Assembly (NCBI GenBank): GCA_029258835.1 | Contig: JAPDJY010000019.1 | Coordinates: 1-62,029 of the forward strand | Length of the DNA stretch: 62,029 nt | DNA from: Thermoproteota archaeon | GTDB lineage: Archaea; Asgardarchaeota; Jordiarchaeia; Jordiarchaeales; Freyrarchaeaceae | Direction of reading: 5' to 3' | Shown here: positions 27,488 to 58,512 of the stretch, piece after piece | Layout of the letters: each line of letters starts with the position of its first letter | How positions within the stretch are numbered: the first letter of the stretch is position 1 | Made by a program: the position numbers and the translations under genes | Notes under the pieces: model-generated | Told to the model about the DNA's origin: nothing | What the model saw: only the letters and a program-made list of their open reading frames with translations | Databases searched by the model: none

Positions 27488-28059
27488 TCCATCACCTCCA
27501 GAACCCTTCTCGAGACGCTCTTCTTCCCAACCACCTCCAAGTATTCCTTGAGGGTTCGACTGTTAAACTTCGAGCAGTCTATTTCAAGCCCCCTGACAGA
27601 GTACCCGAAGTAGTAGATGTCGATCAGCGCCTTCTCAGGCTTAGCAACGGGCACCTGGAAGCCTTCATACCAAACGTACTCGAACCCGAAGAACAGCCTC
27701 CTCTTAATCCTAAAGAATTCTATCTTTGTATCGTTATATGTAGCAACCTTGTTCTTCCGCTTTCTAGTTGTTACGACTTGGACGCCCATTGGCATCTGGG
27801 ATATTGCCCCCCTAATTAGAAGCGCGGAAAACATCGAAACATACGATGGGAAGGTGAGGAATGGGGCTACGAGTAAGGGGTCCTCGGTCACAGCATACTT
27901 ACCCCTCTCCACAATCTTTATTCTTCCCTTTTCCTTCAGTAGGTTTGCGAGGCGCCTCACATAGCTCCTCGGAACGCCTCTGATCACGAGATCCTTAGCT
28001 GTGAAAACAGGCATCCTCATGACTTCATCTAGGACTGACGCGTACTTCACAATTGGCAT
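27481..28059 (-). CDS. abiEi: AbiEi-family antitoxin/transcriptional regulator
   Basis: N-terminal wHTH (VERGKY), PSYVSMFSAL and AKPEKALID motifs; overlaps abiEii. Confidence 0.9.
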   Translation of the reverse strand: MPIVKYASVLDEVMRMPVFTAKDLVIRGVPRSYVRRLANLLKEKGRIKIVERGKYAVTEDPLLVAPFLTFPSYVSMFSALLIRGAISQMPMGVQVVTTRKRKNKVATYNDTKIEFFRIKRRLFFGFEYVWYEGFQVPVAKPEKALIDIYYFGYSVRGLEIDCSKFNSRTLKEYLEVVGKKSVSRRVLEVMEC

Positions 28060-32482: not shown

Positions 32483-32517
32483 CTATTTCTCCTTATAAAC
32501 TCCACAAAAAAGGCTCG

Positions 32518-33492
32518 GTGGCCCGGATGGAAGCAAGCCTGACGGTTAACGGAGTCCCTGTCCACGTACGTCTAATAGACACATCAGACTTTAAAGTTCT
32601 CTATGTAAATGGCTCGGCATGCTATGAGGAAGCGGCTAAAGCCATTCCAGGAGTGGAAACCGTCAAAGTAGCCGGAGTAACAGTCCTCAAATCGTCATCA
32701 GGTAAACCAGTCATACCAGTAGTTCACCAGTCAGGCAGCCCCCTACCAGAAAACCAGATTGTAAACTTGGCAAAAACCGTTCACAAAAAGGAAGAGTGGG
32801 AGATCGCACGGCTAAAGATCATAGCTGCGAAAGCGGTAAGCATGGCAGCTCTAGCAACAGGCGTGGTGGCTGCTGCAACGCTATCAGCTATCCTAGGCGC
32901 TGTAGCCGTAGCCCTGGGAGTATCCTCAGTACTCCTGCTAAAACTAGCGGATAACGGCATCAAACACATCGTAAGCCAGAAGGTGGTGATCGAAGAAGGA
33001 GTCGTTGGGGGGGAGGGTGAAGAAGACGAGTTAAGCGAAGAAGACTACTATAGGGATGCTGCCAGCCTATGCTATGAAAAGGCCCAACGCTTACTTCAGG
33101 ATGGGAAAAGCGAGGAGGCTCTAACTTACGCGTTGAGAAGCCTAGAGTATGCGAGCAAGTTTACACAGGTAGAAGCAGATGTAGACGACTTACAGCAGGT
33201 GCTACAGGCAATCGACCGAGCGTTAAAAAGCAAGCCACCCCTCCAGCAGCCTAAAACACAAGCCTCACAGCCCCCCTCTCAGCGGAAAGATGGTGTCGCC
33301 TCTCAAGGAAGTCCACAACAGTCGAAGCAGGAATGTGGCGGAGAAGGCGGCGTATGCGACGTAGGAGGAATTCTACGCCAACTTGAAGAATACTCTGGCA
33401 AAACGCTTAGCAGGAAAGGTGAAGGTGGGAAGGTGAAAGGTGAGGTATGCGCTGAGAAAGGTAAGCTGGACGCCTTCATGGAGGTAGCGTAA
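32518..33492 (+). CDS. Membrane-associated hypothetical protein (Ala/Gly-rich hydrophobic hairpin, acidic linker, TPR-like helices, Q/P-rich linker)
   Basis: Hydrophobic stretch AVSMAALATGVVAAATLSAILGAVAVALGVSSVLLL; first gene of the operon; start may be ATG 32527. Confidence 0.7.
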   Translation: MARMEASLTVNGVPVHVRLIDTSDFKVLYVNGSACYEEAAKAIPGVETVKVAGVTVLKSSSGKPVIPVVHQSGSPLPENQIVNLAKTVHKKEEWEIARLKIIAAKAVSMAALATGVVAAATLSAILGAVAVALGVSSVLLLKLADNGIKHIVSQKVVIEEGVVGGEGEEDELSEEDYYRDAASLCYEKAQRLLQDGKSEEALTYALRSLEYASKFTQVEADVDDLQQVLQAIDRALKSKPPLQQPKTQASQPPSQRKDGVASQGSPQQSKQECGGEGGVCDVGGILRQLEEYSGKTLSRKGEGGKVKGEVCAEKGKLDAFMEVA

Positions 33493-35028
33493 ATGAAGAA
33501 GCTTACAACCATTTCTCTTATAGCATTAACGTTAACACTAGCACTAACCCTGCTTTCCACCCACATTCATCCTCAAAACTCTATCCTTCTCATCCCTCCC
33601 TCCTCCCTCCCCTCTCACCCCCATCAAGGTAAGTTTTCACACACCCTTATCTACCTGTACAATTCATCGGCTCTTAACTACTATGAGGACTGGGCTGACA
33701 CTTTGTCGCAGGAGGGATACGTGACCATAGGAGTTAACTACTCCGACTTTAACCCTCACATGGAGTGTGATGCAATAATTATAGATGCAAACCTTAAGGT
33801 TGACGCCGAATTAGCCTCCAACATAGAATCCGCCGGCAAACCCGTTCTAGCCATAGGGCTAGGAGGCTCCCTCTACCTCAACAACACCGGGGTAACCGTG
33901 AAAACATACAGCTACCACGCAGCCAACGAGGTACACTTCATATATAGATCCCAAGAAGCCCAGTCGCATGAGGTCCTCAACGTTCCAAGTAGGGTTAACT
34001 TCAGCGGCAACGGCTACATCCCTCTCCCTTTGGAAGAGGAGGAACTCACCTATGTTAAAGCAGGTCTGAAGAGGATTCTTTACGACTTATACGTTGGCGG
34101 GTACTCCTTCATGAGCTTAAACGGTTCAACCATCCACCTGGCACTCCCCAACGTAACCAAGCTTAAGGTGAGTGGGCTGGGAAAGCAAGCATACCACAGT
34201 ATTGTAAACGCCGTCGACTGGCTTTCACGGGGCGCCCCCAAGCTTAGACTGATCGTATCCTCATCAAAAACGGTTTACGAGGCGGCAGAACCGATAAACG
34301 TGACAGTAAAACCCTACGATAATTACATGGTGGAATGGCTCCAGACCCCAGGTGAAACCACCCTAACCCTAACCCACGTGGAAAAAGGGGGGACAGTGTA
34401 CTCTGAAATCAGGTCAGGGTGCAACTTAACCTTCACCATTCATAAACCGCTGGAGAGAGGAAACTACACGGTGAAGGTTACCCGCGAATCCTACACCTCC
34501 ACGGTCAGCATACAGGTAAACTACACCATGATAAAAATAGTAAATCTGACTTGCAGCGAAGATGTTCTTCAGGCAAAAGTAGAGGTAGAGGGAGAACCCG
34601 AAGCAGGCATCGAAGTGGTCTTCAGCTACAAAGCCGGTGTCTGGCCGCCAGCTGACTTCTGGGACAACCATTACGAATACGCTGAGGTCGGGAGGGCTGA
34701 AACCAACAGTAGCGGGTGGGCGACGCTGAGCTGGAACCCGGAGCCTGGAACCTACACGGTCGTAGCATGGATACAAGCTCAGCACGGACCAGAGAATTGG
34801 ACGACTACGTTAATACGAGTAAGCGGGGTGGCCCCCGGCACACCCTCCGAGCCTCCAGGCTTCAACCCTCCAACCCCATCCTCAGGAAACACTCACTCAC
34901 TGTTTCTCCTCTCCGCTTTAACGGTTACGTCGAACGTGGGCGAGGCTGGCTACGTTAGGATTGAAGGCTGCATTGCAGCAGCCCTGGGAGCAGTCACCCT
35001 CGTAGCCGCCAGAAAAAGAAGCCTCTAA
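33493..35028 (+). CDS. Secreted, C-terminally anchored surface protein with Ig-like beta domains
   Basis: Signal peptide MKKLTTISLIALTLTLAL, GNYTVKV/PGTYTVVA strands, N-glycosylation sequons, Pro-rich linker, terminal TM helix plus RKRS. Confidence 0.8.
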   Translation: MKKLTTISLIALTLTLALTLLSTHIHPQNSILLIPPSSLPSHPHQGKFSHTLIYLYNSSALNYYEDWADTLSQEGYVTIGVNYSDFNPHMECDAIIIDANLKVDAELASNIESAGKPVLAIGLGGSLYLNNTGVTVKTYSYHAANEVHFIYRSQEAQSHEVLNVPSRVNFSGNGYIPLPLEEEELTYVKAGLKRILYDLYVGGYSFMSLNGSTIHLALPNVTKLKVSGLGKQAYHSIVNAVDWLSRGAPKLRLIVSSSKTVYEAAEPINVTVKPYDNYMVEWLQTPGETTLTLTHVEKGGTVYSEIRSGCNLTFTIHKPLERGNYTVKVTRESYTSTVSIQVNYTMIKIVNLTCSEDVLQAKVEVEGEPEAGIEVVFSYKAGVWPPADFWDNHYEYAEVGRAETNSSGWATLSWNPEPGTYTVVAWIQAQHGPENWTTTLIRVSGVAPGTPSEPPGFNPPTPSSGNTHSLFLLSALTVTSNVGEAGYVRIEGCIAAALGAVTLVAARKRSL

Positions 35029-35038
35029 AGGAGGGATC

Positions 35039-35911
35039 GTGGTGGAAGCTAAAACGGTTAAAATTGATCCGAGTCAAAGTGTAGCCTCCCTCGACGGCCT
35101 CCTCGAATCCCTTCTTCACACAGTCGAGGTTAACCTCGGACGTAGAAAGCCTAAAAGCATATGCATAGTTGATGGTGACATGAACGTTTGGGCTTCGCGA
35201 GGCGAGGTTGACGCCTCCGTCATAAGCAAGTACAAGGGGATACCGTTCGATCGGCTTGAGGCTGGAAGCCTCCTCCACGACTCGTCAAGCTTCCTTCTCA
35301 AGGTTAGCGACAGGTTCGGCGTCCTCGTATCCATGTCAGAGTCGGACCTGTCAATGATCGCGGCGGCAAACCTTAAGGGGCGTCTAGGCGCGTTAAGCGA
35401 GTTCTACAAGCTGGACAAGGTGGTAAGCGAGGTAGAAAAAAGGAAAGGGAAGCTGGAGGCGCTTCTGTCCGAAGCAGCTAGAAGTTATCAGCTTCTAACC
35501 CAAAGAGGCGACCTCCACCTCCTAGTCCTGTGTGATAGTGACGGACGGGTTCTAGCATGGTGGGGGTCAACTCATCCAAGGCTCCTCTGGGAGCTGGCAG
35601 CCTTAGGCGCTGCCCTGATCCAGATGGGTAAAGCAGGAGAGGAAAGGCTTGGAGCCCCGTTCGAGAACGCAACGGTTATGTATCGCGGCTACCAGCTCCA
35701 CGCCTTTAAAGTGTGCGAAGCCGAAGGCAGACTTATAGTTCTCCTGGCAGTTGCATCGAGCACGGCAAACCTTGGACTTCTAAGAGTTAAGCTAGCACGC
35801 CACGCCCGCCATCTCGAGGCGGCGGTGAGGGTTGAAGCCAAAAGGACACTAAAAGTGACCGAGGAAGACGTAGAGAAAATTCTAGAAAAGTTCTCAGCGG
35901 GTGGATACTAG
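35039..35911 (+). CDS. Roadblock/LC7 (MglB-like) protein with a second, probably related N-terminal domain
   Basis: LLVLCDSDGRVLA...LAALGAAL...VLLAVASSTANLGLLRVKL is a roadblock signature; abuts the GTPase gene. Confidence 0.8.
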   Translation: MVEAKTVKIDPSQSVASLDGLLESLLHTVEVNLGRRKPKSICIVDGDMNVWASRGEVDASVISKYKGIPFDRLEAGSLLHDSSSFLLKVSDRFGVLVSMSESDLSMIAAANLKGRLGALSEFYKLDKVVSEVEKRKGKLEALLSEAARSYQLLTQRGDLHLLVLCDSDGRVLAWWGSTHPRLLWELAALGAALIQMGKAGEERLGAPFENATVMYRGYQLHAFKVCEAEGRLIVLLAVASSTANLGLLRVKLARHARHLEAAVRVEAKRTLKVTEEDVEKILEKFSAGGY

Positions 35912-36520
35912 ATGAAAACAAGGGGAAAGTTTGTAGGCTGCTACGACACGCCGTCAAACTTCAGAGTCGACATGCAGGTTAAGCTTGTCCTTTGGGGTCC
36001 AGGGCTCAGCGGTAAGACAACGTTCCTCAGAGCAATAGCCAAGCTTTACCCCCACATGATCGTAGCCGGCCCGATAGAGCTCGCCACGAGCGAGGGTAGA
36101 ACCATCTGGGAAGACTACCTGGCGCTCCAAGCATGCTACCGCCACCTCAGCGTAACCTTCCACATTTACACTACTACCGGTCAACGCCGCTTCCTGCATA
36201 CGAGAGAGTACGTTGTCGGGGGAGCGGACGCCATCCTCTTCGTCGCCGACTCACGTGGAGAACAGATAAAGGAGAACAAGAGAAGCTGGGAAGAACTAAC
36301 CTCCATTCTACCCCCAGTTCCTCCACCGGTGCTGGTTGCAGCCAACAAGCAGGACCTGCCTGGCGTGCTAAGCTGCGAGGACGTGGCGAGCATACTGCAC
36401 GTTGACGAAGACATAGTCTACCCCACGATAGCGCGTGAAGCATGGGGGGTGGACGAAGTGTTCAAGGAGCTGGTTCGGTCATCCCTAATAGGGGAAATGA
36501 AGCCGAAAACCCAATACTAG
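35912..36520 (+). CDS. MglA-like small GTPase
   Basis: GPGLSGKTT (G1), ATSEGRTIWEDY (G2 with Arg), IYTTTGQ (Asp-less G3), GADAILFVADS, NKQD (G4) and TIA (G5). Confidence 0.88.
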   Translation: MKTRGKFVGCYDTPSNFRVDMQVKLVLWGPGLSGKTTFLRAIAKLYPHMIVAGPIELATSEGRTIWEDYLALQACYRHLSVTFHIYTTTGQRRFLHTREYVVGGADAILFVADSRGEQIKENKRSWEELTSILPPVPPPVLVAANKQDLPGVLSCEDVASILHVDEDIVYPTIAREAWGVDEVFKELVRSSLIGEMKPKTQY

Positions 36521-36531
36521 GAGGCGCGAAC

Positions 36532-37173
36532 GTGGCATCCCTACTAGTGTACATGTCGGCTGAGGACCTAGCTAGGCTTGGAAGCCTCATATTTGCAGGT
36601 AGAAACGTGCTTATCGAAGGCTTCATAGAGTCCAGCCTCCTCCTCCACCTCTCCTCCTTCACCGTCAGGGATCCCATCATCGCCGACGACGCATGCACCC
36701 TGCTAAACTTGCAGTGCACCACGGGAATCCTCCCAATATACCCTAATGTTCCAGCCGAGCTCCTGCCTGAACTCTTCAACGTTGACGGAGGATGGGTTGC
36801 CACCACCAGAAAAGTTAACCTTACCCCGCCATCAACGATCCCAGTCTACCACATGTCATCTCAAAAATGGAGTAACGCTCCCGAACCCCTCGCCTTTTTC
36901 CTTGAAGCCGTACGTTTCGCCTCGAAGACACGGGATTTAAGCAGGGTCATTAAAGCAATTACAAGCGTGGTTGAAGCCAAAGCATCCGCGGTCTGGGAGA
37001 TGCTGGAGGCCGGGTTAGCGTTCAGCGAAGCTCTGCAAACGGCGGCCTCCTCGCCAGAGGAGGCACAGGTAATACTGCTACGCTTAGAGCTGGAACACGG
37101 CCTTCCAGCCTCGAGAAGCGAAGTGTTAGACGCCTTAAGGAGGGTTACAAATGCTAGCAAACACCCAAAGTAA
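36532..37173 (+). CDS. Hypothetical protein
   Basis: GTG at 36532 after GGAGG; fills the gap between the GTPase and helicase genes; no recognised motif. Confidence 0.65.
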   Translation: MASLLVYMSAEDLARLGSLIFAGRNVLIEGFIESSLLLHLSSFTVRDPIIADDACTLLNLQCTTGILPIYPNVPAELLPELFNVDGGWVATTRKVNLTPPSTIPVYHMSSQKWSNAPEPLAFFLEAVRFASKTRDLSRVIKAITSVVEAKASAVWEMLEAGLAFSEALQTAASSPEEAQVILLRLELEHGLPASRSEVLDALRRVTNASKHPK

Positions 37174-38977
37174 GATGGATACTCCATTGGCGGGCAGCCT
37201 CGACCTGAAGGACGGTAAAGCCCGTTTTTCACAGCGGCGGCTCCTCCTTTCCATGGCGGAGAAAGCAGGGGTGTTCAAAGGTGAGAGCATCCTGATAGTA
37301 GCTCCTCCCGGCTCCGGTAAAACATGGCTCGGCTTAGAGGTTGCAGCTGGCAGGGCGTTAATGGGTGAGAAAGCGGCGTACCTAGCACCCTTAAGAGCCC
37401 TCGCGGCCGAGTGCTATTATAAGATCAAGAGGAAGGGATTAAGTGTTTCCCTAACGACCGGAGACTACCACCTTCCTCTGGGCGAGGAGTGGAGCATCCT
37501 GGTTTCAACGTTTGAGCGCTTCGACTCTCTCACTAGGAGAAGCGAGGTGTCTGTCGGCACGGTGGTTGTCGACGAGGTTCACACGCTCGGCGACGGCAGG
37601 AGAGGTGCCCGCCTAGAAGGACTACTGGTTAGAATGCGTGAATCAAACGTTCAGCTGGTCGCTTTGACCGCTACCCTAGGCAACGCCGAGGAAATAGCTG
37701 AATGGCTCGGGTTAAAGCTTCTGAAGCTTAAGCCAGCGCGTAGGCAACCAAAGGTTATCGTTTGCCAAGACAAGAACCGCGCAGTTTTAGAGCTGGCTGA
37801 GCGTGCTGTGAACGAGCGTGAGCAGCTTCTCGTCTTCGTTTCAACTAGGAGAAGCGCTGAGTCGCTGGCTAAGGTCATCGCGAAAAAGCTAGGCTTAGAC
37901 TTTACGGGTTCAAGCCTGAAATGTCTTCCAGACGAGTTGGGCGAGCTAGCCGCGTCTGGGGTAGGATACCACCACGCTGGGCTAACGAGAAAGACTAGGG
38001 CAGCCATCGAAGAACTGTTTGACCAAGGAGTCATTAGAGTTTTGGTGGCAACCACTACGCTTTCCGCCGGGGTAAACATCCCAGCCAGCATCGTCGCAGT
38101 TAGAGACTTAAGGGTTTTCGACGGTGAAAGGTCAACTTACCTGGACGCCAACGTACTCCACCAAATTCTTGGGAGGGCTGGCAGGCGTGGGGGGAAAGGA
38201 GAGTCCTTCATACTATGCCAGTCGCATGCAGAGAAGGGAGCAGTCCTGAGGAGGTACTTTAACGGGTCAGCTCCAGTCACGTCCTCGGCAGTAAGCCAGA
38301 TATGGCGCTTCTTAGACGAGCAAGTGCTGGTTGAGGTTTATAGGAGAGGGGAAGCATCACTAAGAGACCTTCAAGGATTCCTCGAGCGAACACTGTGGTG
38401 GAAGCAAAGGATAAGGGAGAAGTTAAGGCTTAAGCCTGAAAAGGTCGTCGTTGAGGGGCAAGTGGCCAAAGGCTTCTTCAAGGCAAGTAAGGCAATCATA
38501 TCCTTTGACCCCTTAAGGTTCAGCTGCAGTTGCAGTCTACCTCAGCCATGCCCCCACGTTAAAGCCCTAGCGTCAGAGGTTGGAGTAGACCTTTCCAACC
38601 CGTTAAAACCAGTCTTGGAGCGTCTCGCCAGGCAAGGATTCCTTGAACAGACAACGGGTAAAACGTATTTCCTTTCAGCCTTCGGAGCATTAACGGTCAA
38701 ACTTTACCTCACATGCGACGTCGCCCTCCTTTTAAGGAGAAGAGTGAGAACGTGCCGAAGCGAACGGGACGTTAAACTCCTAGCAATGGAGGCACTGGAG
38801 GAGTGCGCTTGCAGGAAACTTGGGAAACCACACGAGGAGAACGCTGACCTCCCGTGGATGATCTACTGCATAGGAGAAGTAGCCCGCCTTGAAGGCGCAG
38901 TTAACGCCATGCTCGCATCCCAAACTCTAAGGGGGGAGGTTGAACGCTGGAGCCAGCTGCGGGAGGATGCTAAATGA
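37151..38977 (+). CDS. Ski2/Hel308-like SF2 helicase with a SWIM-type zinc finger
   Basis: APPGSGKT, APLRALA, DEVH, LTAT, YHHAGL, ATTTLSAGVNIP and QILGRAGR motifs; CSCSLPQPCPH finger; start may be 37175. Confidence 0.9.
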   Translation: MLANTQSKMDTPLAGSLDLKDGKARFSQRRLLLSMAEKAGVFKGESILIVAPPGSGKTWLGLEVAAGRALMGEKAAYLAPLRALAAECYYKIKRKGLSVSLTTGDYHLPLGEEWSILVSTFERFDSLTRRSEVSVGTVVVDEVHTLGDGRRGARLEGLLVRMRESNVQLVALTATLGNAEEIAEWLGLKLLKLKPARRQPKVIVCQDKNRAVLELAERAVNEREQLLVFVSTRRSAESLAKVIAKKLGLDFTGSSLKCLPDELGELAASGVGYHHAGLTRKTRAAIEELFDQGVIRVLVATTTLSAGVNIPASIVAVRDLRVFDGERSTYLDANVLHQILGRAGRRGGKGESFILCQSHAEKGAVLRRYFNGSAPVTSSAVSQIWRFLDEQVLVEVYRRGEASLRDLQGFLERTLWWKQRIREKLRLKPEKVVVEGQVAKGFFKASKAIISFDPLRFSCSCSLPQPCPHVKALASEVGVDLSNPLKPVLERLARQGFLEQTTGKTYFLSAFGALTVKLYLTCDVALLLRRRVRTCRSERDVKLLAMEALEECACRKLGKPHEENADLPWMIYCIGEVARLEGAVNAMLASQTLRGEVERWSQLREDAK

Positions 38978-39462
38978 AGGTTTGCGTGTGCACAGTCTGC
39001 AACTCCTACTTCTCCTCCAAGGCTAAGAGGCCAAAGTGCCCTCGCTGTGGAGGGTGGGGTAAGAAGGTGTGTGAAGTGGAGAACGCCAGGGAGGCGGCGG
39101 AGAAGGTTAAGTTGCTTCAAGCACAACGGGTAGCGAATGGAGAAAAGGGTTTGCAACCCTGGCGTCTACCGGGCGGGACCCGTTCGGGTAGTGATTTTAG
39201 TTGTTCCGTACGAGCCACGTCCAAGCAGCAAGAGACCATAAGCATCCTGGGGATGCATAGAGAACTCGAGGAGAAGCGTAGACGGCGTCCTAATGGGTTG
39301 ACGAGCTTTATGCGCTTTGTCAGCATGATGGGCGGCGTGGTCTCCGAGGAGGACTTGTTTGCCCTCTTCGACCGTAACGTGATTGAACCCTTAATTGAGA
39401 GGTTAGAGGCTCAGGGAAGGGTGGTAAAGGTTGGCGGGAAGCTCGTCTTCAAAGACGTTTAG
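38974..39462 (+). CDS. Zn-ribbon plus C-terminal winged-helix protein
   Basis: CTVC...CPRC; C-terminal VSEEDL...LIERLEAQGRVVKVG. Confidence 0.7.
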   Translation: MKVCVCTVCNSYFSSKAKRPKCPRCGGWGKKVCEVENAREAAEKVKLLQAQRVANGEKGLQPWRLPGGTRSGSDFSCSVRATSKQQETISILGMHRELEEKRRRRPNGLTSFMRFVSMMGGVVSEEDLFALFDRNVIEPLIERLEAQGRVVKVGGKLVFKDV

Positions 39463-40023
39463 GTGGTCGCCGTGAGGGGATTAGTAGTCCACGTGTATGG
39501 TGAAGCGGGCAGCGGCAAGACCACCCTCGCGCTACGTATAGCGTCATCCCTGTCAGGTAGGGGCTTCCAGACCATTTACGTTTCAAGAAGCATTCCTAGA
39601 GGCTTCCTAAAGTTTGAAGGCGACAGAGTGGTCTTCCTGAGGGTTTCATCCGATGAATGCCTCGTCAGCCTACCTGAAACTGTTGAAAGTCTTCTTTCTC
39701 CGAGAGTAAAGCTCATAGTTGTAGACTCCGTTGCAGGACTTTTCAGGAATCTGAGGGAAACCGGGAGGCTGAGGCTTCTCCCCTTTGTCGCCCTAAGGCT
39801 GAGAAGGACTGCCTTGAAGAAAGGGCTATGCGTCCTGTTGCTGAACGAGGTAACTTCAATGAATGGGGAGGTTAAAGCTTGGGAGGGGGAGGAAGTGGAC
39901 AAGTACTCTGACGAGTCGATCCGCCTAGAAAAGTGGATGGCTGCTAGGGTAGCACTGGAACCCCTAGAACACCTCACCCCTACCTTTAAAGGCTTGCACA
40001 GCTGGCTAAGGAGGTTGAAGTAG
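39463..40023 (+). CDS. RadB-like RecA-family ATPase (core domain only)
   Basis: VYGEAGSGKTT Walker A, LIVVDSVAGLFR Walker B, LLNEV; start may be GTG 39472. Confidence 0.82.
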   Translation: MVAVRGLVVHVYGEAGSGKTTLALRIASSLSGRGFQTIYVSRSIPRGFLKFEGDRVVFLRVSSDECLVSLPETVESLLSPRVKLIVVDSVAGLFRNLRETGRLRLLPFVALRLRRTALKKGLCVLLLNEVTSMNGEVKAWEGEEVDKYSDESIRLEKWMAARVALEPLEHLTPTFKGLHSWLRRLK

Positions 40024-40968
40024 GTGAGGTCTTGGCTGCTCGTAGCGCTGTCCCCCCTCATACTTGTCATAGCGTTCTTCATGTTCAAGGCAACCCAGGC
40101 ATGCCTCCAAGGAAGCTTCAAAGCCCCTTTCTACATTGGAGCAATATACATCACAGCGTACTTGGTCATCCGCCGCATTCAAGGCTCGTGGAAAACAAGG
40201 CTAATTGAGGTTGGAGGGTTAGGGCACACCTGCCTAGCGTTTTCCCTCACGTTAAGGGCTAACTACCCTTCAAACATTCTCCCTTTAATTCCTGTTCTAG
40301 CTCTGGCCACGTCATCAGTAATCTATGCGATACTACGAGCTTTCCCGCCTCTAACCGCCTCAGCCGTGCTAAACTGGTTTGCCGCTTTTACGGGAAGCCG
40401 CTTCAGGCTCATAGCCTTCCTAAAGATTACGTCGCACGGCGACGCAGAAGCCCTGCTGGCTGAAGCATGGAAACACAACCTGGCTTTCACCATTGAAGCA
40501 TACAACGGCGAGGTGATTCTTTCCGTCACCGCTGAAGCTAGGCGCTATAGTAGAGCAGTGGAAGCAGTCAGGAGGAGAATGAGCTGGCTTGAAGAAGCTC
40601 TGAAGACGGCTGGGTTCACGTTCACCCGCGTTGAAGGGTGGATAGAGGTTGAAAGACTCCTGTACGCTCCCATATACCCCTCAGACCCGAACAAGCCATC
40701 GTGGAGGGGGGAGGCGCTGGCGCCAGCAGTCGGAGACGGGGAGGAAACAGGCTTGTTCCTTAAGCCGTCTGGTGAAGGATGGACGGCTGCCTTTCTTTCA
40801 CGTATCAAGGCAAGCAGAAGAGGCGGGTGGCGTGCTGTTAGAAGAAGCTTCGAACATCAATGCGTGTCCATCCCGTATCCTTCATCCACCCTCAAATCCT
40901 TCCTAACCCGAGCCTTACACTCGCCGAAGAGGGTGTCATGTGAGAAGCTGCATGTTGGAGGTGGTTGA
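40024..40968 (+). CDS. Membrane protein (about 4 N-terminal TM helices) with a soluble C-terminal alpha/beta domain
   Basis: Hydrophobic N-terminal third; ILSVTAEA..YSRAVEAVRRRMSWLEEALKTAGFTFTRV resembles VirB4/TraC N-terminal domains. Confidence 0.65.
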   Translation: MRSWLLVALSPLILVIAFFMFKATQACLQGSFKAPFYIGAIYITAYLVIRRIQGSWKTRLIEVGGLGHTCLAFSLTLRANYPSNILPLIPVLALATSSVIYAILRAFPPLTASAVLNWFAAFTGSRFRLIAFLKITSHGDAEALLAEAWKHNLAFTIEAYNGEVILSVTAEARRYSRAVEAVRRRMSWLEEALKTAGFTFTRVEGWIEVERLLYAPIYPSDPNKPSWRGEALAPAVGDGEETGLFLKPSGEGWTAAFLSRIKASRRGGWRAVRRSFEHQCVSIPYPSSTLKSFLTRALHSPKRVSCEKLHVGGG

Positions 40969-41973
40969 ATGGAGCTACGCGAAATAAAGGGTGTCGGACC
41001 CGACAAGCTAAGGAGGCTGATGAATGCAGGCTACAGCACGGTTGAAGCAGTAGCTTTCGCTAATCCTTCAGACCTTGCATCGGACGCGGGCATAGGGGAG
41101 CTGACGGCTAGAAGGCTAATTCAGGAGGCTAGGGGGATTGTGACGCGTGGCCAGGGACGTGGAGGAAAACTCATCGAAATACTCCCCGGCAGGGAGGCTA
41201 GAAGAATCCTTCAAAGCATTGAACGCGTCACCACGGGCCTTAAAGGGGTTGACCTGATTCTGGGCGGAGGCGTTGAAACCTGCGCCATAACGGAGTTCTA
41301 CGGTCCGGCTAGGGCTGGAAAAACCCAGATGTGCCATCAGCTCTGCGTCACGGTGCAGCTCCCCAAGGAAAAGGGTGGGCTTGAAGGGAGAGCCCTCTAC
41401 ATAGACACCGAGAGAACGGTAAGATATGACGCCCTGGCCAGGATTGCTGAGCGGTTCGGCTTGGACCCGGATGATGCATGCGACAACGTGTTTTACACAT
41501 ACGCTGTCAACAGCGAAGCCCTTCACCAAACGGTCAGGTCCCTTGACGAAGTGGTTAAGCAGAGTAGGGTCAAACTCGTCGTAGTAGACTGCCTCACAGG
41601 ACACTTCAGGGCTGAGTACACTGGTAGGGAGACGCTTGCCCTAAGGCAGCAGAAGATCAACAGGCTGATACACGACCTGCTCCGCTTAGCGCTAAGCTAC
41701 GACCTGGCGGTGGTCGTGACGAACCAGGTTCAAGCCCAGCCAGATGTATGGGGGAAAAGCGAAGCACCTACAGGCGGACACGTCGTAGCCCACGGGGTCA
41801 CCTACAGGGTGGCATTAACATCCAAAAAGTACAACGTGAGGGTTGCAAGCCTCGTAGACGCTCCAGCCCTGCCACCCTCATCAACCTTCTTCGCCATAAC
41901 TTCGAAGGGGTTGGTGGATGTAAGCGAGGAGGAAGTGGCGAAGGGAAAGCCGGTAGGCGAGGAGGAGTGGTAG
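40969..41973 (+). CDS. radA: RadA/Rad51-family recombinase (full length with HhH domain; probable paralogue)
   Basis: IKGVGP HhH, TEFYGPARAGKTQ, YIDTE, VVVDCLTGHFRAEYTGR, RQQKIN, TNQVQA and GGHVVAH motifs. Confidence 0.9.
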   Translation: MELREIKGVGPDKLRRLMNAGYSTVEAVAFANPSDLASDAGIGELTARRLIQEARGIVTRGQGRGGKLIEILPGREARRILQSIERVTTGLKGVDLILGGGVETCAITEFYGPARAGKTQMCHQLCVTVQLPKEKGGLEGRALYIDTERTVRYDALARIAERFGLDPDDACDNVFYTYAVNSEALHQTVRSLDEVVKQSRVKLVVVDCLTGHFRAEYTGRETLALRQQKINRLIHDLLRLALSYDLAVVVTNQVQAQPDVWGKSEAPTGGHVVAHGVTYRVALTSKKYNVRVASLVDAPALPPSSTFFAITSKGLVDVSEEEVAKGKPVGEEEW

Positions 41974-41974
41974 G

Positions 41975-42295
41975 GTGCTCCCCTTCATTTTACCCTTAGA
42001 CGTTAAAAGGCTTGAAGCTAGGCGGAGAAGAATGAAGCATAGGAGGACGATCCGATTGAAAGCTGAGAAATGGATGATTGCAGCAGCCTTGCCTGAAATG
42101 GAGGAGAAATGCGGGCATCTTTACGGTGAAGAATGCTGTGTAAGAGTTATAGATCTAAAGGAAGAAGTGGTGGAAGCGACGGTTATCGCTTCAAGCCCTG
42201 AAGTTGCCGAGGAAACCGCCGCCAGAATAAGGAGAGCATGCAGCATTCTCTGGAAAGCCGAGAAAGAAATGAGTAAAGAGGGGCAGGAGGCTTGA
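41975..42295 (+). CDS. Small hypothetical protein
   Basis: Coupled to both neighbours (1-nt and 3-nt gaps). Confidence 0.6.
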   Translation: MLPFILPLDVKRLEARRRRMKHRRTIRLKAEKWMIAAALPEMEEKCGHLYGEECCVRVIDLKEEVVEATVIASSPEVAEETAARIRRACSILWKAEKEMSKEGQEA

Positions 42296-42298
42296 GCG

Positions 42299-43003
42299 AT
42301 GAGTGGCGTAGCAGGTGAAGGGGGGAAAACTGGGGGGTTCAGCGAGGGGTTAAGTCAAGCTGGGTTTAAGAGTAGGAGGCCCTCTACGCGCTTGGCATGG
42401 ATCCTAGCGGTTGCTGCTACGCTTTCGCTCACCCTAGCCTTGGCTCCTTCACCCATCATCCTCTTAGCTCTAATCGCATTCTCAGCAATCGCTCTAGCTA
42501 TCTTAGCTCTTAAGTTCGCATTAAAACTTCACCAGCCAAGCCTTGAAAAGGTAACCCCCATTAGGCTCCCAGAACTTTTCCTGTCAGCTGGAAGGGATGT
42601 ACTGGTAGCCCGGAGGAGCGATGGGACATACGCCTATGGTGTGCTTCAAGTCTCGCTTGTCCCGGAAGTCGTGAAAGGAGACGTGAAAAGGTTCCTCAGA
42701 ATGCTTTACCTTAGCAAAACCTCCTTCTTCTATCACGCAAGGCAGGAAGCAGTCCACGCTGGAGTAGCTGGCGTCGAGGAGGAAAACGCTGCAGCCGTGG
42801 CAGGCGTGTGGAAAACAACAATCCTAATAGGGACGATGGTTAGGGCTAAGCATAGGCTGGAGGAGGCCGTGGAGGAGGCCCGAAGAAGGGTTCAACACGT
42901 TAAGTCATGCTTCGAAGCAGCGTTCCCACACCACAGAGTGGACGTGCTGAGGGGTAAAAGGCTAATCGACGCTGTGACTGGAGGAGGGATCCCTTTTTTA
43001 TGA
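42299..43003 (+). CDS. Two-TM membrane protein with a soluble C-terminal domain (VirB3/PrgI-like topology)
   Basis: TM hairpin LAWILAVAATLSLTLALAPSPIILLALIAFSAIALAILAL; ILIGTMV...LEEAVEEARRRVQHVKSCFEAAFP; ATGA overlap with the next gene. Confidence 0.65.
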   Translation: MSGVAGEGGKTGGFSEGLSQAGFKSRRPSTRLAWILAVAATLSLTLALAPSPIILLALIAFSAIALAILALKFALKLHQPSLEKVTPIRLPELFLSAGRDVLVARRSDGTYAYGVLQVSLVPEVVKGDVKRFLRMLYLSKTSFFYHARQEAVHAGVAGVEEENAAAVAGVWKTTILIGTMVRAKHRLEEAVEEARRRVQHVKSCFEAAFPHHRVDVLRGKRLIDAVTGGGIPFL

Positions 43004-44427
43004 CGGGAGCCGAGCTCAACCGCTACCTGACGCTTGAAGGCGTGCTACGAGTTGGGTTGCCGAGCAGGCCGCCCGCAGAGTTCACTCCACCACCCCTAAC
43101 CGTGGACTTCACCGTTGGGAAGATAATTGAAGCAGAGAACCTAGAGCCGCACGCGTCTTTCGGCTTCACCGTGGAGAACCTGTCAAGAGGGGTTCTCGTC
43201 GCTGGGGGAAGCTTGAATGAAAGGCTTAACACGGCCATAAAGATCATTGAAGGAGCAGCCAAGCTCGGCTGGAGCCACCTAGTGGCGACGAACGAAAACG
43301 TGAACGTGATAAAGTCACTCGTCCCCCCCGCAAGGGTTTACGACGGCTTCCCCCTAAACCCTCTAGACCCGGAAGACGCCTCCCCACCGGACTATGGCTC
43401 CACGCTCGCGCTCCTCCTACAGTCAGCCTTGGGGCTCTCAGACGTTCAAGCTGAAATACTGCAGGACGCCCTGAACATGTGCTATGATGAGGGAGCCCTC
43501 TCCCTCATAGATTTGAAGGAGAAGGTTAGGGAAGCGTCTATGAGCGACTTGAGGAGTCCGGCTGAGAGAAGGGAGGCTGAGCGGCTACACAGAACTCTAG
43601 GTCTCCTACTCTCGCTTAAGGGGGTGGAGAAGCTCACCCCAGCTCAGCCCCTAAAGCTTGCATGGCTCACCGGGGAACCGGTGGCTGCACGTCTCCCCTC
43701 ACCCATCTTAGCGGCTGTGGCACAAGCATCTCTTATGGCTAAAGCCTTAACGTCAAGCCTTAGGGGGTTCTCGGTGGTCGTGGAGCTGGACTCCTTCAAG
43801 GACACTGAGCCTTTAGCATGGGTCTTCGATAAGTTAAAGGAGAAAGGGGTTGGAGTTCTGGCGTTAACGTCGAACCTTTCAAGCCACATAAACACTGTTA
43901 AAAAGTTGGAGAATAGAGTCGTCCATAAGCTTAGCGATGGAGCAGAAACCTCCCTTGCGGGATCCCTGATTGGTCTTAAGGAGGAGGCGGCAAGCGTTCA
44001 AAGCGACAGGAGACAGCGCCTATACCAGAGGGAAGCCCTAAGGTACCTAGGGTGGGGTGAAGCGGTAGTTCAAAGAAGTGATGCTCCCTCACCCATGCTC
44101 GTCGTTTTCAGCAATGCTTTGAAAGCCCCCAGCGTTGAAGCCGAGCCACTACCCACGGTCGAAGGTCGTACACCCCTCCAAGTGGACTTCGGCTCGGTGG
44201 CCGAAGACGCTTTGAGGGTTCTCCAGCTGGTTTACGAGTTCCCCCAGATTACGCTCAGCCAGATAGTAGGCGGCCTCCCTGAAGTGGGTGAGATGGCCCG
44301 GGAGCTGGCATTAAGGCTCAAAGACAGAGGATACCTGGCGTCTTACAGGGACAGGAGGGGAAGACATGTTTTCACCGTTACCCGTAAAGGGGAGGAAGCA
44401 CTAAGAGGTGGAGGCAGATGGGTGTAA
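43000..44427 (+). CDS. HerA/VirB4/FtsK-like protein with degenerate Walker motifs and a C-terminal winged helix
   Basis: LSRGVLVAGGSLNER at the Walker A position, PLNPLDP, helical insert, VVVELD, LALTSNLS, ENRVVHKL, LRYLGWGEAVV; wHTH ending FTVTRKG. Confidence 0.7.
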   Translation: MTGAELNRYLTLEGVLRVGLPSRPPAEFTPPPLTVDFTVGKIIEAENLEPHASFGFTVENLSRGVLVAGGSLNERLNTAIKIIEGAAKLGWSHLVATNENVNVIKSLVPPARVYDGFPLNPLDPEDASPPDYGSTLALLLQSALGLSDVQAEILQDALNMCYDEGALSLIDLKEKVREASMSDLRSPAERREAERLHRTLGLLLSLKGVEKLTPAQPLKLAWLTGEPVAARLPSPILAAVAQASLMAKALTSSLRGFSVVVELDSFKDTEPLAWVFDKLKEKGVGVLALTSNLSSHINTVKKLENRVVHKLSDGAETSLAGSLIGLKEEAASVQSDRRQRLYQREALRYLGWGEAVVQRSDAPSPMLVVFSNALKAPSVEAEPLPTVEGRTPLQVDFGSVAEDALRVLQLVYEFPQITLSQIVGGLPEVGEMARELALRLKDRGYLASYRDRRGRHVFTVTRKGEEALRGGGRWV

Positions 44428-45224
44428 ACCTCTCGCCCTTCGTCGAGTGGCGCGCCCTTCCCCATCCAGGGAGGCTAGCGGTGGACGGGCATAACATGCT
44501 TGTTGGACTACTAAACTCTGGAGGGACACGCTCCGCAGTAGTCAACATGCTCTACAAGGTGCTAAGGCTTCTTGAACTAGGGGTTAAGCCGGTTATCGTC
44601 TTCGACGGAGCCCCCCACAAGCTTAAAGGGAAAACTGCTGGAAGCAGCAGACTGGTGGAAGCCGTTGAAAGGGTGAAGGAAGGGCTGCAGCTCATGGGGG
44701 TGCCGTGCGTTCATGCTCCGGGAGAAGCGGAAGCGCAGGCAGCCCATATGGCTATGAAAAAGGTGGTTGACGCAGCTTACACCATGGACTATGATGCCTT
44801 CCTTTTCGGGGCTCCCTTAGTCGTAAGAGGTGTGGGCGTCGAGGCTGCAGCTGGTGCGACTTTGAGAAGCGTGCTTCGTAAGGCTGGGTTAACGCTCCCC
44901 CAGCTGGTAGATGCGGCGGTTCTAGCAGGGACAGACTTTAACAAGGGCGTTAAAGGGGTGGGGGTGAAAACGGCTGTTGCCCTGGTGAAAAGGCATGGAT
45001 GCCTGGAAAACGTGCTTGAAGCGTTAAACATGCCGAAGAGCGTTTTCCTTGAAGCCAGGAAAGTATTTCTTCATCCAGCCGTCGCAGACGTAAAATTCTT
45101 CTTTACATCCCCGAACAAGCATGCCCTTAAAAGGTTCCTAAGGGAGAACGGCGTCAGAGGAGCAGAGCGCTTCGTAAGGCGGCTTGCAGGGGTAAAACTT
45201 AAACAAGCGAGGTTAGGATGGTAA
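44418..45224 (+). CDS. FEN1/XPG-family 5' nuclease paralogue (short, lacking the helical arch)
   Basis: MGVNL, LAVDGHN, VIVFDG, APGEAEAQAA, TMDYDAFLFG and GTDFNKGVKGVGVKTA motifs; PIP-like KQARLGW. Confidence 0.9.
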   Translation: MGVNLSPFVEWRALPHPGRLAVDGHNMLVGLLNSGGTRSAVVNMLYKVLRLLELGVKPVIVFDGAPHKLKGKTAGSSRLVEAVERVKEGLQLMGVPCVHAPGEAEAQAAHMAMKKVVDAAYTMDYDAFLFGAPLVVRGVGVEAAAGATLRSVLRKAGLTLPQLVDAAVLAGTDFNKGVKGVGVKTAVALVKRHGCLENVLEALNMPKSVFLEARKVFLHPAVADVKFFFTSPNKHALKRFLRENGVRGAERFVRRLAGVKLKQARLGW

Positions 45225-45225
45225 C

Positions 45226-46164
45226 ATGCTTCTCCTATTAGCCCTCCTCATGCTGGCTGCATTCTCCTGCATTATGGCAACGTTGAGGGCGGGGTTCTAC
45301 GTTAACCCTTTCAGCCTAATGTTGATGTTATGGCAAGCGCTTACTGCTCCATTAAGGCTCGCCAGGCGAAGGTGGAAGGCGTCGGCATCCGCTCTATCAG
45401 CTGCACTTACGCTAATAGGGCTGCTGTATGCTTACAGTTTCGGATTAGAGGTGGTAGACTTATGGAACCCCTCAACGCCGCTGCTTATAGCAGCAGCATG
45501 GATGCTGCACGTTTTCACATGCGTGCTCAACCTTCCACCCGTAGTATGGTTGATCCATGGGGGTGTTCACGTCGCCCTACCTATTGCAGTGTCAACCCTA
45601 GCCGGTGTCGGGGTTTACCTTCTCCTCAAAGGGTTAACGTGGAAGGCTGGCTTCACGCTTACAGCCTCACTCATAACCGCAACTACACCAATGGTCACCG
45701 AACGCTTACAGGTAGCAGTGCGCACGGTGCAGGCGACGCTGCCAGCAGAAACCATTACCGTAATCACCGTAATCGCGGCCTCTACGTTAGCCTTCTTAGC
45801 CGTAGCAGCGTCTTCTGTTTATAGAGGTAAAAGTATGGTTTACGTTGAAACGTTCCAAGCTTCTTACGTGTTCCCTTACAGGTTCGCTAGGAACGTGGTG
45901 GCTGGGGCTGCCAGCTGGGATAGCTCAGTTAGAACGGTTATGGTCGCGTTAGCTGAGGGGCAGAGAGTGCACGTCTTAGTTTCAGGGGTAAGCGAGGAAG
46001 AATTCAGGGAGAAAGTTAAAGAAGCACTGGGCTACGTGCCGACTCCACCCCCAACTAAGCAGGCTGAGAGATCGTGGAGGAAGTACGTGGAGGAAGGCGA
46101 CGTGAAACCAGCGGTGAACTATCTACTTCAGCAACTCGGAGTAACCGGCGGCCACGTCCCTTAA
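45226..46164 (+). CDS. Polytopic membrane protein (about 6-7 TM helices) with a soluble C-terminal domain
   Basis: The first roughly 200 aa are strongly hydrophobic; last gene of the operon. Confidence 0.7.
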   Translation: MLLLLALLMLAAFSCIMATLRAGFYVNPFSLMLMLWQALTAPLRLARRRWKASASALSAALTLIGLLYAYSFGLEVVDLWNPSTPLLIAAAWMLHVFTCVLNLPPVVWLIHGGVHVALPIAVSTLAGVGVYLLLKGLTWKAGFTLTASLITATTPMVTERLQVAVRTVQATLPAETITVITVIAASTLAFLAVAASSVYRGKSMVYVETFQASYVFPYRFARNVVAGAASWDSSVRTVMVALAEGQRVHVLVSGVSEEEFREKVKEALGYVPTPPPTKQAERSWRKYVEEGDVKPAVNYLLQQLGVTGGHVP

Positions 46165-50606: not shown

Positions 50607-51032
50607 CTATGGAATCTGGGAGACGTGGAGTACGACGTCCTCATACTTTCGCCTAAGCCTCTTTACGAGTTTTCGATCTGCAGTGTAGAGCCTCGTGTTT
50701 AGGGTTACCGCTAGGGCCACGTAGGATGCATCATAAATAGTTACTTCCTCCTCCACCGCTATCTCCACGGCTCTCTCAGCCACCTCCCCTCTCAGGGAGT
50801 ACAGTTCTATCCCGTAACTTGAAAGCGCGACGGCTACATCTTTAAGCTCATCCATACTAAACAGGTTACTGTACTTTAACGCATTTAAGACTTCAAACGG
50901 GAGCAGCTCAGGCGCCACTATCATGACTTCCCCGTTCACATGCATATCCCTCAACTTCAACGCTTTATCAGAGTCCTCCTCCTCAATAAACCACTTAACT
51001 ATCAGGCTGGCATCGCCAACCACCCGCTCCAT
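50607..51032 (-). CDS. vapC: PIN-domain toxin, VapC family
   Basis: VVGDASLIVKW, FEVLNAL, IYDASYVALA and YTADRKL motifs. Confidence 0.92.
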   Translation of the reverse strand: MERVVGDASLIVKWFIEEEDSDKALKLRDMHVNGEVMIVAPELLPFEVLNALKYSNLFSMDELKDVAVALSSYGIELYSLRGEVAERAVEIAVEEEVTIYDASYVALAVTLNTRLYTADRKLVKRLRRKYEDVVLHVSQIP

Positions 51033-55738: not shown

Positions 55739-55801
55739 ATACTGCTTCGAAGACCTAATGGTGGCTGGAATATAGCAAAACTTAAACAGTTTTATTTCCC
55801 C

Positions 55802-56572: not shown

Positions 56573-56578
56573 GCTACT

Positions 56579-57316: not shown

Positions 57317-57317
57317 C

Positions 57318-58511: not shown

Positions 58512-58512
58512 C

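Follow-up and report, generated by a model that had tools for sequence, protein, structure and literature searches.

A resident Asgard operon that links membrane proteins and a VirB4/HerA-fold pseudo-ATPase to paralogues of recombination enzymes

We describe a 15-gene operon of a Jordarchaeales archaeon (Asgardarchaeota, family Freyrarchaeaceae; assembly GCA_029258835.1), which occupies positions 32518-46164 of the forward strand of contig JAPDJY010000019.1; all 62,029 nucleotides of this contig stretch were analysed and are referred to here as the window. The genes, numbered g1 to g15, encode a surface protein, several membrane proteins, a VirB4/HerA-fold protein with a dead P-loop, a small GTPase with a roadblock partner, and paralogues of Hel308, RadB, RadA and FEN1. 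This is a resident, vertically inherited Asgard operon, and its proteins probably form one membrane-associated DNA-processing system. More tentatively, we favour the fuller proposal that they constitute a membrane-tethered DNA-processing and recombination complex that handles DNA at the membrane, most likely incoming DNA.

Results

Fifteen tightly coupled genes behind one promoter region

The 15 open reading frames (ORFs) are co-directional on the + strand, to which all operon coordinates below refer, and all of them are open and tightly coupled. The successive junctions from g1 to g15 measure 0, 10, 0, 11, -23, -4, 0, 0, 0, 1, 3, -4, -10 and 1 nt; each of the 14 is thus either an overlap of 4-23 nt or a gap of 0-11 nt, a count that takes the GTG at 36532 as the start of g5, with GGAGG located 9 nt upstream of this codon and the N termini of the homologues in agreement with it. 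The 1.07-kb spacer upstream of g1 is AT-rich and is the sole TATA-bearing spacer of the block, and a TATA-like box (TTATAAA, 32494..32500, + strand) lies at its 3' end, ~24 nt upstream of the first start codon. An earlier interpretation of this DNA by a model working from the letters alone (the sequence-only reading) had proposed one tight 15-gene operon behind one AT-rich promoter region; the span proved exact, the junctions overlap or are no longer than 11 nt, and the TATA box was found. The same reading had named 13 functions for the 15 genes, leaving g5 and g11 undescribed.

Six small contigs from one marine-sediment metatranscriptome match the operon at 100% identity: g1 and g2 contain two each, g10 contains one (41424-41667), and the sixth runs across g10 and g11 (41914-42084). 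One of them starts at 32513, 5 nt before the first start codon; such contigs give neither expression level nor transcript ends, and the parts of the operon outside them carry no information on expression. Co-transcription is weakly supported, by the contig that crosses the g10/g11 junction, within data limited to six small contigs. A scan for bacterial-type promoters and terminators, a type of scan not applicable to archaea, performed no better than on shuffled sequence.

A second set of recombination enzymes

The sequence-only reading had recognised Ski2/Hel308-like, RadB-like, RadA-like and FEN1-like genes, and Pfam and NCBIfam scans supported these families. The g6 product (37151..38977) is a Hel308/Ski2-like superfamily 2 helicase paralogue with DEAD and Helicase_C domains (Pfam); a zinc finger of the SWIM type (CxC...CxH) is inserted in it. 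In NCBIfam it comes closest to the Hel308 models, scoring 217 bits where the cut-offs lie at 887-1216, and the match covers the motor only (residues 38-423); the sub-threshold score, the finger insertion and a shorter C terminus place g6 outside Hel308/Hjm. The finger is kept in all 12 operon-linked helicases that were aligned. Overlapping g6 is g7 (38974..39462), which encodes a zinc-ribbon protein with a small C-terminal domain that resembles a winged helix-turn-helix by its pattern; the CxxC...CPRC ribbon is invariant in four orthologues.

Two RecA-superfamily proteins are encoded. The first, g8 (39463..40023), is a short RadB/KaiC-like ATPase with an intact Walker A motif (GEAGSGKT), matched by KaiC, RecA and AAA_25 in Pfam and scoring 48 bits, below the cut-off, against the RadB model TIGR02237. 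The second, g10 (40969..41973), is a full-length RadA/Rad51-family paralogue with a helix-hairpin-helix (HhH) domain, an ATPase core and the Walker A motif GPARAGKT (Pfam Rad51, 251 bits; HHH_5, 48.6 bits). It passes the RadA model NF003301 (341.8 bits against a cut-off of 259) and falls below that of TIGR02236 (326.8 against 361). The HhH domain, the core and the intact Walker A motif assign g10 to the RadA/Rad51 family, for which strand exchange is predicted. The nuclease g14 (44418..45224; XPG_I, 68 bits, plus XPG_N) belongs to the FEN1 family, retains the catalytic acidic residues and lacks ~32 amino acids of the helical arch; its C-terminal motif resembling a PCNA-interacting peptide (PIP) is degenerate. 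With 172 bits against a cut-off of 352 for fen_arch, g14 is classed by its sequence as a FEN1-family paralogue and not as FEN1 proper. The arch deletion is limited to g14 and its orthologue in a second genome of the same family (G001), and several other operon FEN paralogues retain both the arch and a PIP-like tail.

Canonical counterparts are present elsewhere in the same genome, whose completeness is 94.7%. A canonical RadA is located on contig C54 (343.8 bits, against 252.2 for g10), and a canonical FEN1 (99.9 bits, against 70.8 for the operon copy) and a canonical Hel308 (625 bits, against 172 for g6) are both located on contig C8; a RadB-like gene was found on contig C51, and eight DUF87/HerA loci also lie elsewhere in the genome. 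The possibility that the operon holds the sole housekeeping copies, which would have spoken against a dedicated system, is thereby removed: the RadA, FEN1 and Hel308-like genes of the operon are extra paralogues.

In a maximum-likelihood tree, seven of the eight operon RadA-like proteins grouped with one long-branch non-operon row in a clade (support 90/97) apart from canonical RadA, and the operon g8-like proteins formed a clade of their own (99/96) apart from the genomic RadB proteins. Long branches make the deeper order of this tree unsafe, and the tree included archaeal and no eukaryotic sequences. The paralogue clades broadly track the genome groups sampled. By their sequences, the operon RadA and g8-like clades are classed as old and dedicated.

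A VirB4/HerA-fold protein with a conserved dead P-loop

Two overlapping genes, g12 (42299..43003) and g13 (43000..44427), correspond to a single chain of 750-850 amino acids in many relatives. According to hydropathy and alignment, g12 consists of a membrane hairpin followed by a soluble alpha/beta domain and matches the N-terminal part of that VirB4-like chain; a g12 profile found nothing in the PDB. The g13 product is a VirB4/HerA-fold pseudo-ATPase with the P-loop sequence VAGGSLNER and a C-terminal MarR/PadR-like winged helix. Its only Pfam match is a sub-threshold one to HerA_C, and its fold was recognised from an AlphaFold2 model (predicted local distance difference test, pLDDT, 92), with Foldseek matches to HerA (4d2i, E 2.7e-11), TrwB and VirB4 (4ag5, E 8e-9, TM-score 0.62). 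A profile search of the PDB likewise returned HerA as the best solved relative (E 3e-14), including the HerA subunits of the SIR2-HerA and DUF4297-HerA complexes, together with winged helix-turn-helix regulators. Identity to VirB4 and HerA chains is 10-15%, so this is similarity at the level of the fold only.

A model of one fused g12-g13 homologue (pLDDT 82) displayed a membrane hairpin, an alpha/beta domain, an ATPase-like domain and a winged helix. In VIA-align, VirB4 (4ag5) ranked first, with Z 29.6 and a root-mean-square deviation (rmsd) of 2.9 A over 330 residues, followed by DndH-C (Z 28.0), HerA (25.4) and TrwB (23.9). Only full-length TrwK/VirB4 chains (four entries) aligned into the g12-type part, from residue ~105, at an overall rmsd of ~19 A. 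From these models, we read g12 and g13 as a putative split VirB3/VirB4-like scaffold, one that may have HerA-type ancestry.

A profile built from g13 and four orthologues, searched against 1.84 billion representatives, retrieved 2091 proteins. E-values of at most 1e-10 were reached by 345, which are family representatives clustered at 50% identity, and the distant matches were canonical DUF87/HerA/TraG-type ATPases. Of the 151 rows aligned, 133 were non-canonical at the position of Walker A: 119 carried a non-canonical motif, and 14 were fragments without the column. Most non-canonical rows read GG[ST]xx[EQD]R or a near variant, and the 18 canonical rows (GxGK[ST]) were distant DUF87 relatives. 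The loss of the P-loop is therefore shared throughout the family, indicating that the dead site is a conserved character of the whole clade and not a product of local decay, and that g13 is more likely a scaffold than a motor. The Walker-dead HerA/VirB4-like protein anticipated by the sequence-only reading is confirmed in both fold and P-loop.

Linkage across Asgard lineages and beyond

Related loci were found in Jordarchaeum, Freyarchaeota and Baldrarchaeum records, and relatives of g6, g8, g9, g10, g12, g13 and g14 adjoin one another in Freyarchaeota, in Baldrarchaeum and in eight or more further Asgard families, the loci showing rearrangements and gene fusions. Within the same family, one genome (G003) has the gene order of the window and G001 has g9-g15 followed by g7 and g8; a g6 orthologue was not found in G001 with the query used, and the G001 contig begins just upstream of g9. 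In a sister family, represented among others by a complete chromosome, the genes are split into two divergent blocks: one strand carries g6-g7-g8-g9, a TPR gene and g14-g3-g4-g5, and the opposite strand carries g10, a g2-like gene, a small transmembrane (TM) gene, g12 and g13; the g13 family was present in all six sister-family genomes. In 13 further loci from other Asgard families, a g6-type helicase lies within 10 kb of the g13 relative in nine and a FEN paralogue within 10 kb in five, and RadA- or RadB-like ATPases are near the g13 relative in most. The linkage is kept between Asgard classes at 25-35% identity, so that conservation of the core, a point on which the idea of a common system depended, holds across Asgard families.

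A scan of 400 Asgard genomes with the g13 profile gave matches in 205 at E <= 1e-5, the weakest of which may include ordinary DUF87 proteins, and, at E <= 1e-30, ~65 matches over the full length, spread over 14 or more families. In the Thorarchaeota-type operon (G318; L061, 5668-7623), an XPD/Rad3-like helicase (DEAD_2 plus Helicase_C_2) is added, of which none is present in the window operon.

Outside the Asgard archaea, a two-gene module was found in which a membrane-anchored pseudo-VirB4 gene overlaps a gene for a Walker-intact RecA/KaiC-like ATPase. It occurs in a Bathyarchaeia metagenome-assembled genome (GCA_046760555.1; L109, 3463-6502) and on a metagenome contig (L110, 10001-13088), in both cases with the other operon genes absent. 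Directly after g13, Baldrarchaeum and one further Asgard genome have a gene for a Walker-intact P-loop protein. The modules outside the Asgard archaea suggest an ancestral unit of a dead ring and a live RecA-like ATPase, to which, as the same comparison suggests, Asgard lineages added helicases and the RadA and FEN paralogues.

A separate arrangement was observed in two genomes of one large Asgard family (G185, L063 8741-12685; G242, L064 7702-11493), where the pseudo-ATPase is 1260-1310 amino acids long with two hydrophobic regions and stands beside a 605-712-amino-acid membrane protein with a RecA-like domain, a different fusion of the same parts.

A resident locus

The operon is flanked by ordinary metabolism genes: upstream are a thiolase and its OB-fold partner of the ChsH2 type, and downstream follow an alpha/beta hydrolase and a saccharopine dehydrogenase. 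Its GC content (0.50-0.57) does not contrast with the neighbourhood. Domain scans of the 15 proteins and the flanks revealed no integrase, relaxase, replicase or TraG/VirD4 domain, no direct repeat of at least 16 nt flanks the operon, and the ten proteins scanned against PHROGs (g1-g3, g5, g7, g9, g11-g13 and g15) gave no match. A mobile element was accordingly rejected as an explanation, there being no integrase, relaxase or replicase, no PHROGs match, no direct repeat and no GC break. The sequence-only reading had likewise taken the locus to be resident rather than mobile, and the housekeeping flanks, with integrase, relaxase, att repeat and composition break all not found, bear this out. 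A complete Freyarchaeia genome that carries a homologous locus is described, in the accessible text of the source, as evenly covered by reads and as lacking any detectable integrated element (PMC11529989).

The genes could instead be left over from an integrated conjugative element or virus in decay and no longer work together, a view in keeping with a VirB4-like ATPase that is both dead and split and with the lineage-specific g1, g11 and g15. Against decay stand the 15 open and tightly coupled frames, the conservation of the dead P-loop in 133 of 151 rows (14 of them fragments without the column) and the persistence of the linkage across Asgard classes at 25-35% identity; integrase, relaxase, att repeat and composition shift were all not found. 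We regard a remnant as very improbable and disfavour it.

Surface and membrane proteins

Hydropathy bears out the anchored surface protein and four membrane proteins expected by the sequence-only reading, as g2 and as g1, g9, g12 and g15, respectively. The surface protein g2 (33493..35028) has a signal peptide, a putative Ig-like/flavodoxin-like ectodomain with a weak CarboxypepD_reg match, and a C-terminal membrane anchor; leads from the atlas are to surface domains of the Ig-like or DUF4350 type. Larger relatives of 677-1016 amino acids lie directly upstream of g12/g13 in four genomes of three families (G006, G009, G126 and G014), and both of those that were scanned (G006 and G126) contain Peptidase_M28. 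A fusogen-like identity for g2 was also considered and found no support, the leads being instead the Ig-like/DUF4350-type domains and the larger relatives with Peptidase_M28.

The membrane protein g9 (40024..40968) combines N-terminal hydrophobic segments with a cytoplasmic alpha/beta domain, and its orthologues adjoin g8 in five genomes (G001, G006, G009, G042 and G145). The idea that g9 and g12 are paralogues sharing a VirB4 N-domain was rejected at the sequence level (hhalign probability 0.1). A polytopic protein with ~5-6 hydrophobic segments and a C-terminal soluble domain is encoded by g15 (45226..46164), and g1 (32518..33492) encodes a lineage-specific membrane protein with an N-terminal domain, a hydrophobic hairpin at residues ~99-146 and an acidic, low-complexity tail, for which no homologue was found in the related loci compared. 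The 106-amino-acid basic/acidic protein g11 (41975..42295) has no assigned function; like g15, it has an orthologue only in G001. No Pfam, NCBIfam or PHROGs family matched g1, g9, g11 or g15, nor, at a meaningful level, g2 or g12, and a match of the membrane proteins to a known transporter family in these three collections, which would have pointed to an unrelated function, was not found. In four other genomes (G016, G145, G140 and G006), proteins of 99-160 amino acids with 2-3 TM segments are encoded just upstream of g12.

An MglA/MglB-type pair with a third partner

The roadblock protein and small GTPase of the sequence-only reading were identified more closely by profile matches to solved MglB and MglA structures. 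The g3 product (35039..35911) is a roadblock/LC7 protein of the MglB type, extended at its N terminus by an additional domain of ~100 amino acids. A four-sequence profile of its C-terminal half matched MglB in the PDB (6h5b, E 8.4e-7; 6izw and 6hjm, also ~1e-6), followed by Robl_LC7 and LAMTOR. The adjoining g4 (35912..36520) encodes an MglA-type small GTPase (Pfam Arf/Ras/Roc) with the P-loop GPGLSGKT, TTGQ at G3 and NKQD at G4. In the PDB it matched MglA chains (3t12, E 4.8e-22; 6hjh and 5ymx, to 4e-18), the next family reaching only 1.8e-8. With its TxxGQ-type G3 motif and its adjacency to the roadblock gene, g4 forms an MglA/MglB pair with g3, which is predicted to act as the GTPase-activating protein. 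The gene linkage suggests that the GTPase may regulate the system.

The third gene, g5 (36532..37173), begins with the GTG mentioned above, preceded by its ribosome-binding site, and encodes a 213-amino-acid protein with no recognisable fold and no match in the PDB. Six homologues were found, the named ones all from Jordarchaeales, the closest being that of Candidatus Freyrarchaeum guaymaensis at 98% identity. A conserved motif, G-R-x-V-x-I-E-G-F-x-E-S-S, resembles a degenerate secretion-ATPase P-loop, which we take as a lead only, as we do the weak atlas feature scores of 0.80-0.87 to T2SSE-like clusters.

Other features of the window

Upstream of the operon, at a distance of 4.5 kb, an AbiEii nucleotidyltransferase toxin (231 amino acids) overlaps an AbiEi antitoxin-like regulator (192 amino acids) on the - strand (26792-28059), forming a type IV toxin-antitoxin pair. 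The product of a solitary PIN-domain gene (141 amino acids; 50607-51032, - strand) is probably the toxin of another such pair. A surface-glycan island (53021-60587, - strand) encodes a 905-amino-acid GT-C/AftD-like membrane glycosyltransferase, two methyltransferases, two GT4 proteins and one GT2 protein; its GC content is low (0.38-0.40 at 54-57 kb), and it may have been acquired. Rfam and ARAGORN detected no RNA gene in the window, where a multi-intron tRNA gene could escape both tools. The DNA runs that contain the operon stretch are labelled as marine, sediment or hydrothermal-vent metagenomes.

Discussion

Comparison with known systems

The closest counterparts are the Ced system of Sulfolobales and the Ted system of Thermoproteales, which the accessible part of one source presents as chromosomal DNA importers derived from type IV secretion systems (T4SSs) (PMC9905601). 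As far as the text available from two sources goes, Ced and Ted resemble the operon in being chromosomal, not mobile, and in combining a VirB4/HerA-class protein with membrane proteins, and they are thought to serve homologous recombination with DNA of other cells, as is proposed here (PMC9905601, PMC11868833). With g12 and g13 they share a C-terminal domain of the VirB4 type and may also share the VirB3-like hairpin and the N-terminal domain. CedB and TedB, however, are active ATPases, whereas the P-loop of g13 is dead; the VirB6-like CedA/TedA and the pilin CedA1/TedC have no homologue detected in the window; and the Ced and Ted loci lack RadA, RadB-like, Hel308-like and FEN1 paralogues or a GTPase switch of their own, all of which the operon has.

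In the VirB3-VirB4 proteins of bacterial T4SSs (TrwM-TrwK of R388), which have the closest solved fold, the hairpin and the ATPase are likewise either fused or split. A relaxase, a coupling protein, VirB6, VirB8, VirB10 and a pilin were not found in the operon, and g13 differs from VirB4 in the lost Walker A motif, the added C-terminal winged helix and its place among genes for recombination enzymes. The HerA-NurA, SIR2-HerA and DUF4297-HerA systems share with the operon the HerA profile match and the pairing of a ring ATPase with a nuclease or helicase on DNA, but the operon has no NurA, SIR2 or DUF4297 partner (Pfam found neither NurA nor Mre11 or Rad50 domains in it), and its ring is membrane-anchored and dead. 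The g4/g3 pair resembles MglA/MglB of Myxococcus and Thermus in gene adjacency (mglB/mglA) and in its TxxGQ G3 motif; it differs in its position within an operon of DNA enzymes, in the extra N-terminal domain of g3 and in the third partner g5, and no link to type IV pilus or motility genes is visible. Competence, ComEC and DprA domains were absent from every operon protein at E <= 0.01. By its gene content, then, the operon does not qualify as a T4SS, Ced or Ted system, lacking an active VirB4-class ATPase and a relaxase, or as a HerA-NurA, Hachiman or ComEC-type competence system, and it does contain an MglAB pair and a family-level RadA. No described system with this gene set was found in the literature searched, with subscription-only papers outside the scope, in agreement with the sequence-only reading, which had presented the gene set as one without a published description; a description of the operon itself was not found in these searches either.

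A proposed mechanism

We propose that g12 and g13 together would form the anchor, a dead ring serving as scaffold and, with its winged helix, as a DNA-binding platform, and that ATP-driven work would come from the Walker-intact g8, g6 and g10. The envelope side would be completed by g2 at the surface and by g1, g9 and g15 in the membrane. DNA would reach the complex at the membrane, most probably on its way in from the exterior or from a partner cell, and there the winged helix of g13 and the zinc ribbon of g7 may bind it; g6 would then unwind it or reel it in, the arch-less g14 would trim it, and g10, aided by g8, would pass it to homologous recombination. In Jordarchaeales, the presumably co-transcribed MglA/MglB switch (g4/g3, with g5) may set the place or time of assembly. 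The physical assembly of these proteins, DNA as their substrate at the membrane and the direction of transfer are inferred from this gene set, and by analogy with Ced and Ted, as they appear in the available text of PMC9905601, DNA arriving from outside or from another cell would be the most economical substrate.

The import or exchange machine of the sequence-only reading is thus supported in some respects, namely by the operon, its residency, its paralogues and its linkage, and not in others, since no channel or pilin homologue was detected and the P-loop of g13 is dead. Several observations weigh against our proposal. A homologue of CedA, VirB6, ComEC or a pilin was not detected in the window, and by hydropathy the window operon contains no small two-TM pilin-like ORF. 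The VirB4-like g13 would be unable to power transport through its own P-loop. Several large Asgard families gave no match to the g13 profile (0 of 31, 0 of 12 and 0 of 7 genomes searched). Jordarchaeales and a single further lineage (G014) are the only groups in which the MglAB linkage was seen, indicating that the GTPase pair is an add-on outside the core. All evidence for expression comes from one RNA library, in which it amounts to six small contigs and DNA carry-over is possible. Finally, the two-gene module on L110 has DpnI, PIN/MazE and AAA_14/DUF4143 genes as neighbours, which gives it the look of a defence island.

Defence and repair as alternatives

These neighbours of the L110 module keep a defence role in play, in which a membrane-tethered system would act against viruses or plasmids, the ring and the surface and membrane proteins sensing incoming DNA and the helicase and FEN-type nuclease destroying it, by a logic like that of Zorya or of HerA-based complexes. 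The best solved relatives of g13 include the HerA proteins of the SIR2-HerA and DUF4297-HerA complexes, and the AbiE toxin-antitoxin pair lies 4.5 kb upstream. Among the ten proteins scanned with PADLOC (g1-g9 and g13), g6 matched the HamB models of Hachiman at E 3e-31, a similarity that is generic to Ski2/Hel308 helicases, and g8 gave two weak P-loop-only matches (mad8 and PDC-S73, E ~1e-4); beyond these there was no match. HamA/DUF1837 was found neither in any operon protein with Pfam nor in the ten proteins scanned with PADLOC, and a known listed defence system, Hachiman included, was therefore rejected, only generic HamB-type helicase matches being present. Moreover, a full HhH-containing RadA, RadB-like ATPases and PIP-tailed operon FEN paralogues are constructive recombination tools and not toxins. 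Defence genes are usually patchy in distribution; here the paralogue clades follow the genome groups, and six of six sister-family genomes are positive. On balance, we judge a defence function improbable.

The enzymes might alternatively serve internal genome maintenance and be tethered to the membrane by chance, acting in the repair of breaks or cross-links, in fork restart or in the resolution or segregation of chromosomes at the division site, with MglAB positioning them at the pole or mid-cell. All of them come from repair and recombination families, the Thorarchaeota-type versions add an XPD-like helicase, the PIP-like tails of several operon FEN paralogues suggest contact with PCNA, and no DNA channel was identified. 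There is also a eukaryotic parallel, in that HELQ binds RAD51 paralogues, a partnership that, according to the accessible text of the source, serves fork and cross-link repair (PMC13623763). HELQ together with BCDX2, a complex of RAD51 paralogues, resembles the operon in combining a Hel308-family helicase with several Rad51-family paralogues, and a SWIM-type finger marks the operon helicase (PMC13623763 and PMC3778836, both as far as their available text extends); the eukaryotic proteins are nuclear and soluble, whereas the operon set is membrane-linked. A full canonical repair set, however, is already encoded elsewhere in the genome. Beside the ring protein, conservation extends to several membrane proteins and to a large protein exposed at the surface, which makes a purely cytoplasmic task hard to explain, and the VirB4-class architecture with its VirB3-like hairpin points to an envelope-spanning ancestry. 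Internal maintenance is, in our estimate, an unlikely explanation.

Implications

A bolder version of the membrane-tethered complex that we favour is an Asgard-wide machine for the intercellular exchange of chromosomal DNA, in which a T4SS-derived scaffold would have had its motor replaced by RecA-family ATPases and a HELQ-like helicase, incoming DNA would be handed to dedicated Rad51-family, FEN1/GEN1-like and, in Thorarchaeota, XPD-like enzymes, and in Jordarchaeales the MglAB polarity GTPase would place the machine at the cell pole or contact site. We consider this version, taken as a whole, doubtful.

The operon amounts to a second, private set of Rad51-family, HELQ/Hel308-like and FEN1-family enzymes tied to membrane proteins and a dead VirB4-type ring and, in this lineage, to an MglA/MglB switch as well. 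Should its function lie in defence or repair instead, it would still define new families, namely the GG[ST]xxER pseudo-VirB4 clade, the SWIM-finger Hel308 clade and the operon-specific RadA clade. The question is open to direct test by recombinant biochemistry and by imaging in the few cultured Asgard strains. If DNA is moved between cells and recombined by these proteins, they would represent a new class of DNA-transfer apparatus, in which a secretion ATPase has turned into a scaffold powered by RecA-like partners, and a concrete candidate for the source, among prokaryotes, of sex-like recombination. If the exchange machine proves true, dedicated recombination machinery in the style of meiosis would have a prokaryotic forerunner here, in the lineage from which eukaryotes arose.

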